Virus record (IMG/VR): IMGVR_UViG_2693429582_000015
Length of the DNA stretch: 4,103 nucleotides
Reading direction: 5' to 3' (one strand)
Source: a virus
Taxonomy: Duplodnaviria; Heunggongvirae; Uroviricota; Caudoviricetes
Position numbers and translations under genes: made by a program. The notes beneath the pieces were generated by a model, which was given only the letters and a program-made list of their open reading frames with translations, had not been told where the DNA came from and made no database searches. Below, one piece after another: positions 3,808 through 3,923 of this stretch; within the stretch, counting starts at the first letter, position 1; every line of letters starts with the position of its first letter.

Positions 3808-3836
3808 TTGACAATAAGAACTGTTTTCATTAAAAA
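3808..3836 (+). promoter_or_regulatory. Candidate sigma70 promoter on the plus strand (antisense to all genes)
   Basis: Perfect -35 TTGACA at 3808-3813; 17-bp spacer; weak -10 TAAAAA at 3831-3836 (lacks the conserved final T). Would drive plus-strand transcription toward the plus-strand terminator at 3886-3923. Confidence 0.25.
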
Positions 3837-3885
3837 CCAGAGTACGAAAGTATCGTTCCTTTATTTTTTCTCCATAGGTATCACC

Positions 3886-3923
3886 ACCGCCAGCGTCCAT
3901 TCCTGTCGCTGGCGGTTTTTTTT
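3886..3923 (+). terminator. Strong intrinsic terminator oriented for plus-strand transcription
   Basis: CCGCCAGCG (3887-3895) pairs perfectly with CGCTGGCGG (3907-3915), 11-nt loop, followed by T8 (3916-3923). On the minus-strand transcript the hairpin is preceded by A8 and followed by non-U-rich sequence, so it should not terminate minus-strand transcription. Confidence 0.7.

Follow-up and report, generated by a model that had tools for sequence, protein, structure and literature searches.

A plus-strand unit opposite the late genes

The window analysed here is a stretch of 4,103 nucleotides (nt) from a Caudoviricetes record of IMG/VR (IMGVR_UViG_2693429582_000015). The element under study, at 3808-3923 on the plus strand, occupies the gap between the 3' end of an esterase-type gene and a small gene encoding a DUF1378 protein in a Shiga-toxin-type lambdoid prophage. 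We consider it probable that this element is a self-contained small RNA (sRNA) gene related to Esr41, PasA and PasC, most likely specifying a trans-acting regulator that would be made in the lysogen. An initial annotation had pointed to the minus-strand orientation of every coding feature, a perfect plus-strand TTGACA, a 9-bp GC stem followed by T8, and the lack of an ATG in the enclosed segment. These observations held up. The minus strand carries all Pfam-supported open reading frames (ORFs) of the window, the hexamer is found at 3808-3813, and no ATG occurs on the plus strand between the -35 hexamer and the T8 tract. The arms of the stem are CCGCCAGCG (3887-3895) and CGCUGGCGG (3907-3915), extended by an A3886-U3916 pair, and T8 follows at 3916-3923. 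The parts of the unit are as follows.

3808-3813, plus strand: -35 hexamer TTGACA, an exact match that recurs in relatives
3831-3836, plus strand: -10-like hexamer TAAAAA after a 17-bp spacer, read from the sequence; putative function
3842-3923, plus strand: predicted sRNA of about 80 nt, its 5' end estimated from the -10 position; matches to Rfam and to the covariance model R1 (see below), and fold
3844-3856, plus strand: small 5' hairpin (ACGA/UCGU, loop AAGUA) of the minimum-free-energy fold
3859-3867, plus strand: U-rich tract ahead of the core, from the sequence
3868-3875, plus strand: conserved core UUCUCCAU, an 8-nt putative seed; conservation across 26 distinct sequences
3877-3885, plus strand: 3-bp stem-loop GGU-AUC-ACC before the terminator, from the fold; counterpart of the second stem-loop of Esr41
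3886-3923, plus strand: Rho-independent terminator with a 10-bp stem, an 11-nt loop and a U8 tail, from the fold; likely Hfq-binding 3' end

The terminator is solid on its own evidence. The scoring of the hairpin fold that the initial annotation had suggested gave -20.1 kcal/mol for the 40-nt terminator piece (z = -7.0), a value that none of 200 shuffles equalled, and the predicted RNA of 81 nt folds at -22.8 kcal/mol (z = -4.95). In the predicted fold the CU-rich stretch UUUUUUCUCCAU at 3864-3875 is unpaired and single-stranded. Note that a terminator scan reported merely a version with an inner 5-bp stem, because the 11-nt loop is above the limit of the scan. The promoter needs outside support, which comes from the relatives of the unit. 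A perfect palindrome, TTATTG-TTGA-CAATAA, spans 3802-3817 and is centred on the -35 hexamer; it is probably no operator, since variants of the L127 type lack it (TTATGG..CAATGA).

Conservation across variants

Two sets of variants were assembled. The first comprised eight Escherichia coli loci (L126-L133) collected by BLAST with the 141-nt gap at 79-88% identity and with no selection for motifs; the second comprised about 120 IMG/VR loci from pattern scans, the first of which, using a 15-base seed pattern, was unspecific and returned true family members at 18 of 120 loci. Conservation of the promoter and terminator in related prophages had been proposed as a check of the initial annotation, and hexamers, spacing, stem arms and T-run are all kept. 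TTGACA is present in every BLAST-collected variant, in Esr41, PasA and PasC, and in loci with an alternative RNA body and a differing spacer, with TTGACT taking its place in one variant class. The -10 region of the relatives reads TAAAAA, TAGAAA or TATATA at 17-18 bp from the -35 hexamer, and the window variant lacks a T that is found in the -10 region of most variants.

Within the predicted RNA, conservation is concentrated in the core and the terminator. All BLAST-derived variants keep GTTGACAAT(A/G)AGAACTGTTTTCATT(T)A, and in an alignment of 26 distinct sequences that includes Esr41 seven of the eight core columns never change and the first reaches at least 90% conservation, whereas the flanks on either side differ and contain indels. 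The kept terminator arms, CCGCCAGC and GCUGGCGG, are nearly invariant, and a T-run of 5-9 follows in every variant. The 5' hairpin recurs in the relatives and in Esr41 with shifted registers (65% of cells pair in one fixed register), and the small second hairpin (3877-3885) is weakly conserved (77% of cells paired). The terminator loop, the RNA body and the promoter spacer are variable, and the gene beyond the T-run changes as well, with at least four different downstream sequences beginning right after it. In one variant (L132 1514-1643, E. coli FDAARGOS_1298) the terminator stem is unchanged but encloses GCAGGAATGGA, precisely the reverse complement of the loop TCCATTCCTGC of all other variants; this looks like an inversion between the stem arms.

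Substitutions in the stem indicate the strand on which selection acted. Pair 8 is C-G in most variants, U.G in L070, L133/L187 and L178, and U-A in L023 and L200, and for pair 9 the G-C of the window is replaced by A-U in Esr41 and in the loci with the alternative body. The compensatory U-A pair of the L023 type was read by eye, as MAFFT placed a 2-nt gap wrongly in that stem. Since the U.G pairs would be A.C mismatches on the minus strand, selection appears to have acted on the plus-strand RNA, and a G.U pair in the Esr41 stem likewise fits the plus-strand RNA alone. The case for a putative RNA gene is thus one of conservation pattern, strand-specific wobbles and thermodynamics.

Promoter evidence and exchange of RNA bodies

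The slot upstream of DUF1378 was surveyed in the 80 closest DUF1378 loci in IMG/VR. A covariance model named R1 was derived from 18 distinct variants of phages and prophages; Esr41, PasA and PasC were outside its seed. R1 matches 72 of the 80 loci, directly upstream of DUF1378 and on the opposite strand. In the other 8, TTGACA and TAGAAA are separated by 17 bp of wholly different sequence, followed by a body of about 95 nt that is unrelated, and then by CCGCCAGCA..UGCUGGCGG with a T-run. All 80 loci therefore bear a promoter-plus-terminator unit in the slot, or a portion of one on the contig (two matches are cut by the contig end). The alternative-body loci are L248, L256, L267, L288, L293, L299, L309 and L311; their body, beginning ACACCGCAGACUUCGGUGUCAUCAUGGUCGUUUUACCAG, is matched by no Rfam family and is a candidate undescribed sRNA.

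Because both hexamers recur at the same spacing in diverged relatives with other spacers, the promoter stands above chance, and their retention across unrelated spacers is what a promoter predicts, unlike the 5' untranslated region of an opposite-strand gene. The same arrangement is found in PasA, in PasC, and in the second tandem unit of strain E2348/69 of enteropathogenic E. coli (EPEC) and of prophages Sp12 and Sp4 of E. coli O157:H7 strain Sakai. The window copy is predicted to be transcribed.

Two tandem sRNA units, one of the PasA type and one proximal to the esterase, occupy the slot in prophage PP2 of E2348/69 and in Sakai Sp12, and an IS629 element and a rearrangement separate the two in Sakai Sp4 (L002 2755-3060, minus strand; L321 4900-5190, plus strand; L320 3011-3100, minus strand, and 7550-7675, plus strand). 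The presence of two tandem units in the slot accounts for the 236-nt minor form of PasA.

Altogether at least four bodies are seen in the slot, namely the UUCUCCAU type, the PasA type, the PasC type and one undescribed type. We propose tentatively, and with low confidence, that the gap between esterase and lysis genes of lambdoid prophages may be a seed-swapping cassette, with a promoter and an Hfq-type terminator as a fixed scaffold and with bodies traded between phages by recombination, and that the RNA might in addition be a cis antisense safety catch. If such a catch acted on read-through into DUF1378, DUF826 and the holin gene, the RNA would serve the lysis cassette as the functional counterpart of an antitoxin.

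Homology to Esr41, PasA and PasC

Esr41 (EcOnc14) is an Hfq-binding sRNA of about 70 nt encoded in the SpLE1 island of E. coli O157:H7 that pairs directly with chuA, cirA and bfr and thereby represses them (Waters et al., PMC5286369). It has been described as specific to enterohaemorrhagic E. coli (EHEC) and as controlling iron uptake, colicin sensitivity, motility and the virulence island known as the enterocyte effacement locus (LEE). In a permissive scan the Rfam Esr41 family (RF02676) matched the window at 3847-3923 on the plus strand with 29.5 bits (E = 0.01), far under the Rfam gathering score of 102 bits; the same model gives 108.6 bits to the true Esr41 and 28.1 bits to the copy of the element in Sakai prophage Sp5. 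The Sakai Esr41 locus contains TTGACA, a spacing of 17-18 bp, TTATAT/TATATA, a GAUGC..GCAUC hairpin, CACAUUUUCUCCAUGGGGUAUUCCCU, CGCCGGCA..UGCUGGCG and U7. Aligned from the -35 hexamer to the T-run, the window and Esr41 are identical in 77 of 120 columns (64%), with z = 8.1 against shuffles.

In the reverse direction, R1, which scores the window at 3840-3923 with 98.7 bits by construction (the window sequence is in its seed), recovers, with filters off, Esr41 with 26.7 bits (E = 2.8e-4, the R1 E-values being rough) as well as PasC (17.5 bits, E = 0.034) and PasA (17.4 bits, E = 0.035). Every match falls on the experimentally mapped RNA and on the right strand. The matches to PasA and PasC are marginal when taken alone, and they gain weight because synteny and promoter are shared. 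Compared with the window, PasC, PasA and the type ii alternative-body unit show 57-59% identity with z = 3.9-5.1.

PasA and PasC were found as Hfq-dependent sRNAs in EPEC E2348/69, where Northern blots detected both as RNAs of 80-85 nt whose accumulation depends on Hfq and which are destabilised without it (Pearl Mizrahi et al., PMC8550237). Their genes are located between a sialic acid esterase gene and the holin-lysozyme operon, and matches to Rfam Esr41 are frequent near pasD, upstream of the esterase (Zhu, Shabalina and Storz, bioRxiv 10.64898/2026.05.13.724894). At both loci we find the RNA to be antisense to the flanking genes. In EHEC, three Hfq-crosslinking peaks of Tree et al., EcOnc51 (Sp12), EcOnc52 (Sp4) and EcOnc35 (Sp4), probably correspond to the two unit types of the slot. 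This assignment assumes an offset between old and new Sakai coordinates of 0 near 1.18 Mb and of about +137 from Sp5 onward, for which AsxR gives +135 to +139. Overall, sequence comparison suggests a single prophage sRNA gene family that includes the element, PasA and PasC of EPEC, probably EcOnc51/52 of EHEC, and Esr41 of the SpLE1 island.

Predicted targets and proposed mechanism

The core UUCUCCAU is, by its sequence, an anti-Shine-Dalgarno sequence. Its complementary stretch, CAUGGAGA, lies at the chuA and cirA ribosome-binding sites; both sites read CCUCAUGGAGA and belong to validated targets of Esr41. Duplex energies were calculated for short windows in the interval from -40 to +20 and compared with 300 shuffles. 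The predicted duplex of the element has -14.1 kcal/mol on chuA (p = 0.003) and -19.9 kcal/mol on cirA (p = 0.01), while Esr41 reaches -20.2 and -26.4 kcal/mol, respectively, at the same predicted sites. The base that follows the core is A3876 in the element and G in Esr41, so one pair is lost in the target duplex; G occupies this place in some variants of the family (L070, L200).

These features point to a likely mechanism. A weak sigma-70-type promoter of its own would produce the RNA in the lysogen, against the direction of the late operon, and the U-rich 3' end would allow Hfq to stabilise it. A U-rich tract before the core, together with a stem and U8 at the 3' end, is the usual Hfq-binding layout of Hfq-dependent sRNAs. 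The single-stranded CU-rich core would then pair in trans with Shine-Dalgarno regions of host messenger RNAs (mRNAs), candidate targets being chuA and cirA, and the pairing would block translation.

Provided that the phage relatives are expressed, additional RNAs with an Esr41-type seed are present, often in several copies, in many Stx1a and Stx2a phages and in about one sixth of complete E. coli genomes. The acquisition of a Shiga toxin (Stx) phage would in that case directly rewire the regulation of iron uptake and virulence in the host, and differences in copy number or variant could contribute to strain differences in Hfq-dependent phenotypes.

Several observations weigh against a functional trans-acting sRNA gene. 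In the promoter scan no part of the window was called as a sigma-70 promoter; the scan rejects the unit at 3808-3836 because the sole -10 candidate at 17 bp, TAAAAA, ends in A and a final T is demanded. Without T at its last position this -10 element is a poor one, and TTGACA occurs in the window at chance frequency (2 found, 2.7 expected in shuffles). To these must be added the low Rfam score, the roughness of the R1 E-values and the marginal matches to PasA and PasC described above. Most pairs of the terminator stem are invariant, and a covariation test on the 26 sequences was not significant (2 pairs changed on both sides, 295 of 500 shuffles equal); the family lacks the depth that such a test requires. 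The Sp5 copy, at 1272087-1272170 on the minus strand of NC_002695.2, has T7 for T8 as its sole difference from the window and is absent from the Hfq-crosslinking list of Tree et al. for strain Sakai and from the Stx-phage sRNA table of Sy and Tree. Finally, the in silico pairing of the element with bfr is indistinguishable from shuffles, as is that of Esr41, and the target prediction is weak because an anti-Shine-Dalgarno seed pairs with many ribosome-binding sites.

Our searches of the literature found no paper that names or assays the window RNA, the nearest being the remark of Zhu et al. on Esr41 matches near pasD, and neither ECs1210 nor ECs1211 appears in the supplementary data of Waters et al. 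The data from ligation and sequencing of interacting RNAs (RIL-seq) in EPEC are silent on the window variant because prophage PP4 of E2348/69 lacks both esterase and DUF1378.

Alternative explanations

The initial annotation had predicted a noncoding plus-strand RNA of about 80 nt and had read it as the antitoxin of a type I toxin-antitoxin locus, with the 59-aa DUF1378 membrane protein as the toxin and the RNA acting on the upstream region of its mRNA. The comparative evidence and the homology to detected sRNAs argue for the predicted RNA, while the antitoxin role found no support and we hold it to be improbable. It is true that the DUF1378 protein is of small size and has a single hydrophobic helix and a charged tail; the RNA gene runs divergently, its -35 hexamer lies just 19 bp from the DUF1378 start codon, the RNA unit or a part of it is in the slot at all 80 DUF1378 loci, and the RNA is fully complementary to the late transcript right upstream of DUF1378. 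However, the predicted RNA (about 3842-3923) lies some 53 nt from the start codon (3789), with the Shine-Dalgarno region and the coding sequence outside the overlap, and seed pairing with the DUF1378 start region (-8.3 kcal/mol) equals that of shuffles (p = 0.53). In five loci, predicted duplexes between the RNA and the start regions of DUF1378, DUF826, holin, lysozyme, antirepressor and Rz did no better than those of shuffled controls, and nothing survived multiple testing. The promoter scan found no minus-strand sigma-70-like promoter for DUF1378 in the gap, so this gene is probably read solely within the late transcript. RNA and DUF1378 do not occur together obligatorily, as Esr41 in SpLE1 and PasA and PasC beside a class II holin do without DUF1378, and an unrelated RNA body stands at 8 of the 80 DUF1378 loci. 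The protein itself matches DUF1378 alone in Pfam, hence no annotated toxin family, and has unknown function in PHROGs; our literature search found no report of DUF1378 toxicity, and the two papers in it that mention DUF1378 assign it no function. The other reading offered by the initial annotation, in which the hairpin is a mere structural or stability element of the minus-strand late mRNA and TTGACA a chance match, fares worse still and is very improbable. The minus-strand RNA would form the same stem at -21.8 kcal/mol, and TTGACA by itself is at chance level, but the wobbles in three variant classes make A.C mismatches on that strand, the T-run, which no variant lacks, stands 3' of the stem on the plus strand alone, the two hexamers recur at fixed spacing despite a diverged spacer, and the whole module recurs in SpLE1 in the absence of any esterase or late operon. 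Hardly credible is a small minus-strand protein across the gap, of 32 aa at 3802-3900. RefSeq NC_019442 does annotate a 41-aa hypothetical protein there, F366_gp39, overlapping the esterase stop codon (L001 4243-4368, minus strand, corresponding to window 3802-3927), but most records lack it, and the frame is broken by 2-nt and 4+1-nt indels among close variants, which makes F366_gp39 unlikely to be a gene.

Two further explanations accept the sRNA gene but assign it another role or fate. Any RNA from the unit would be perfectly antisense to late transcripts entering the lysis cassette, so an effect in cis is conceivable: the RNA, alone or beside a role in trans, would pair with stray late read-through transcripts, and cleavage or blocked passage would keep DUF1378, DUF826 and holin off in the lysogen. 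Every family member retains the orientation and the position directly upstream of lysis genes, the RIL-seq data from EPEC contain PasA joined in chimeras to the 3' end of the esterase mRNA as well as sense-strand RNA of the intergenic region (PMC8550237), and a separate minus-strand terminator at 3285-3314 also insulates the holin gene. Against such a brake, late transcription is antiterminated by Q and strong during induction, Esr41 acts in trans from an island that has no lysis cassette, and perfect antisense pairing would need no invariant 8-nt core; we think it unlikely. We are just as doubtful that the window carries a decayed or silent copy, descended from an sRNA gene and now below useful expression. 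The weak -10, the missing T that is common in the -10 region of most variants, and the lack of an Hfq-crosslinking peak for the Sp5 copy in Sakai would fit decay, but neither core nor terminator is damaged, the variant is spread through many Stx1a and Stx2a phages with hardly any change, and the expressed relatives PasA, PasC and Esr41 have -10 regions that are just as non-canonical. A trans-acting sRNA gene of the Esr41/PasA/PasC type remains our preferred reading of the element.

Genomic context

The genes that surround the element are listed in order along the minus strand.

3925-4103, minus strand: 3' end of an esterase-type gene (SASA/DUF6645; nanS-p/yjhS in Stx phages), from the annotation under BLAST matches, with Pfam DUF6645 on the C-terminus
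3925-3927, minus strand: esterase stop codon, one base past the T8 tract
3610-3789, minus strand: DUF1378 gene, 59 aa with one N-terminal hydrophobic helix and a charged tail (Pfam PF07125, E = 7.7e-38; PHROG 494, an entry of unknown function)
3324-3572, minus strand: DUF826 gene (Pfam)
3031-3246, minus strand: phage-21-type holin gene (Pfam)
2493-3026, minus strand: lysozyme gene (Pfam)
1649-2218, minus strand: gene for a P22 antirepressor-like protein (Pfam)
1025-1492, minus strand: Rz gene, by position and size, with no Pfam test
1087-1272, minus strand: Rz1 gene nested in Rz, by position and size, with no Pfam test
247-561, minus strand: PerC-family regulator gene (Pfam PF06069, E = 5e-44)

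BLAST showed positions 3560-4103 to be 100% identical to Stx2a-converting phages and to match 307 phage records, mostly of Stx1a and Stx2a phages, in which the upstream gene is the yjhS/NanS-p sialate O-acetylesterase. The order stx, esterase, gap, DUF1378, DUF826, holin, lysozyme is found in RefSeq phage TL-2011c and in Sakai prophage Sp5, and its section from the esterase to the holin recurs in records of Stx phages and of E. coli. Of 5426 complete E. coli genomes, 919 contain the 141-nt gap region, each at 1-7 places (median 2), and it is likewise present in 307 phage records; the window variant occurs in nearly identical form in many Stx1a and Stx2a phages. Scans of species representatives, with one genome per species, gave no match to the exact promoter pattern or to DUF1378 peptide patterns.

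Other elements of the region deserve mention. In Sakai Sp5, STnc100 (EcOnc27/PasD-type) and AsxR lie upstream of the esterase (L004 3423-3628, plus strand, and 3630-3682, minus strand), and STnc100-like matches are found at the same place in the E2348/69 loci (L003 170-359; L002 628-832). With sRNA genes both upstream and downstream, the esterase gene is bracketed by sRNA genes on either side. The strong intrinsic terminator at 3285-3314 (minus strand; 13 pairs and a T-run) stands between DUF826 and holin, inside the late operon, and would halt transcripts that lack modification by the Q antiterminator ahead of the lysis genes. Between the antirepressor gene and Rz lies a hydrophobic ORF of 50 aa (1500-1652, minus strand) that matches PHROG 4906, of unknown function (E = 2e-32), and is annotated in Sakai as ECs_5707. 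The PerC/Pch-family gene (247-561) is preceded by a very AT-rich stretch at 600-800 and followed on its own strand by a GCGAC..GTCGC hairpin with T5 at about 186-212; relatives of this family are activators of the LEE in EHEC. An Rfam match to snoZ30 at 3539-3621 was dismissed as a chance match.

Comparison with known systems

The element shares with type I toxin-antitoxin loci such as hok/sok, tisB/istR-1 and zorO/orzO a small hydrophobic ORF beside a short divergent RNA. In those systems the RNA overlaps or pairs specifically with the toxin mRNA, whereas here complementarity is confined to the polycistronic late transcript further upstream. Nor was a sigma-70-like promoter found in the gap that would make DUF1378 part of a stand-alone module; it sits inside the late operon, and RNA and protein are not inherited as a pair.

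The anti-sRNAs AgvB and AsxR (Tree et al. 2014) are likewise short sRNAs of the late regions of lambdoid prophages, encoded at a fixed position and antisense to late genes, and they combine a conserved 3' scaffold with variable 5' parts in a way similar to the body swapping in the slot of the element. Their slot is a different one, between moron genes and the esterase, and they act by sponging other sRNAs. The Rfam scan of the window gave no AgvB or AsxR match, and they have no sequence relation to the element.

The closest parallels in position are PasA and PasC. The element, like these genes, lies between the sialate O-acetylesterase gene and the holin and lysozyme genes and is antisense to them, and the 3' end of PasC is one base from the esterase stop codon, exactly as in the element. 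All three share a related promoter (TTGACA, about 17-18 bp, an A-rich -10), a 5' hairpin and GCCAGC..GCUGGC terminator arms. At 58-59% global identity, the element falls short of the BLAST similarity over more than 75% of the RNA that Zhu et al. take as their criterion. Both RNAs lack the central 21-nt segment that carries UUCUCCAU, and the R1 alignments skip this segment; the PasA seed as reported overlaps the PasA terminator stem. The PasA and PasC loci also adjoin a class II holin directly, with neither DUF1378 nor DUF826 between them.

The closest parallel in the RNA itself is Esr41. Element and Esr41 have a common layout consisting of a TTGACA promoter, a 5' hairpin, the single-stranded UUUUCUCCAU, a small second hairpin, a CGCC(A/G)GC..GCUGGCG terminator and a U7-8 tail. 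Both have the unpaired CU-rich core UUUUCUCCAU between 5' hairpin and terminator, and promoter and terminator are homologous, which suggests that the module as a whole has a common ancestor. The 5' hairpin and the second hairpin differ in sequence, the predicted chuA and cirA duplexes are shorter in the element, and the element is no member of RF02676 by Rfam's definition. Esr41 lies next to iha in SpLE1, while the element lies in the late region of an Stx prophage; the neighbours of Esr41 in SpLE1 that are of DUF1378 or DUF826 size contain neither domain. The element appears to be an undescribed and unnamed family member that bridges Esr41 and PasA/PasC, joining three separately named sRNAs into one family with a probable common origin in the phage late region.

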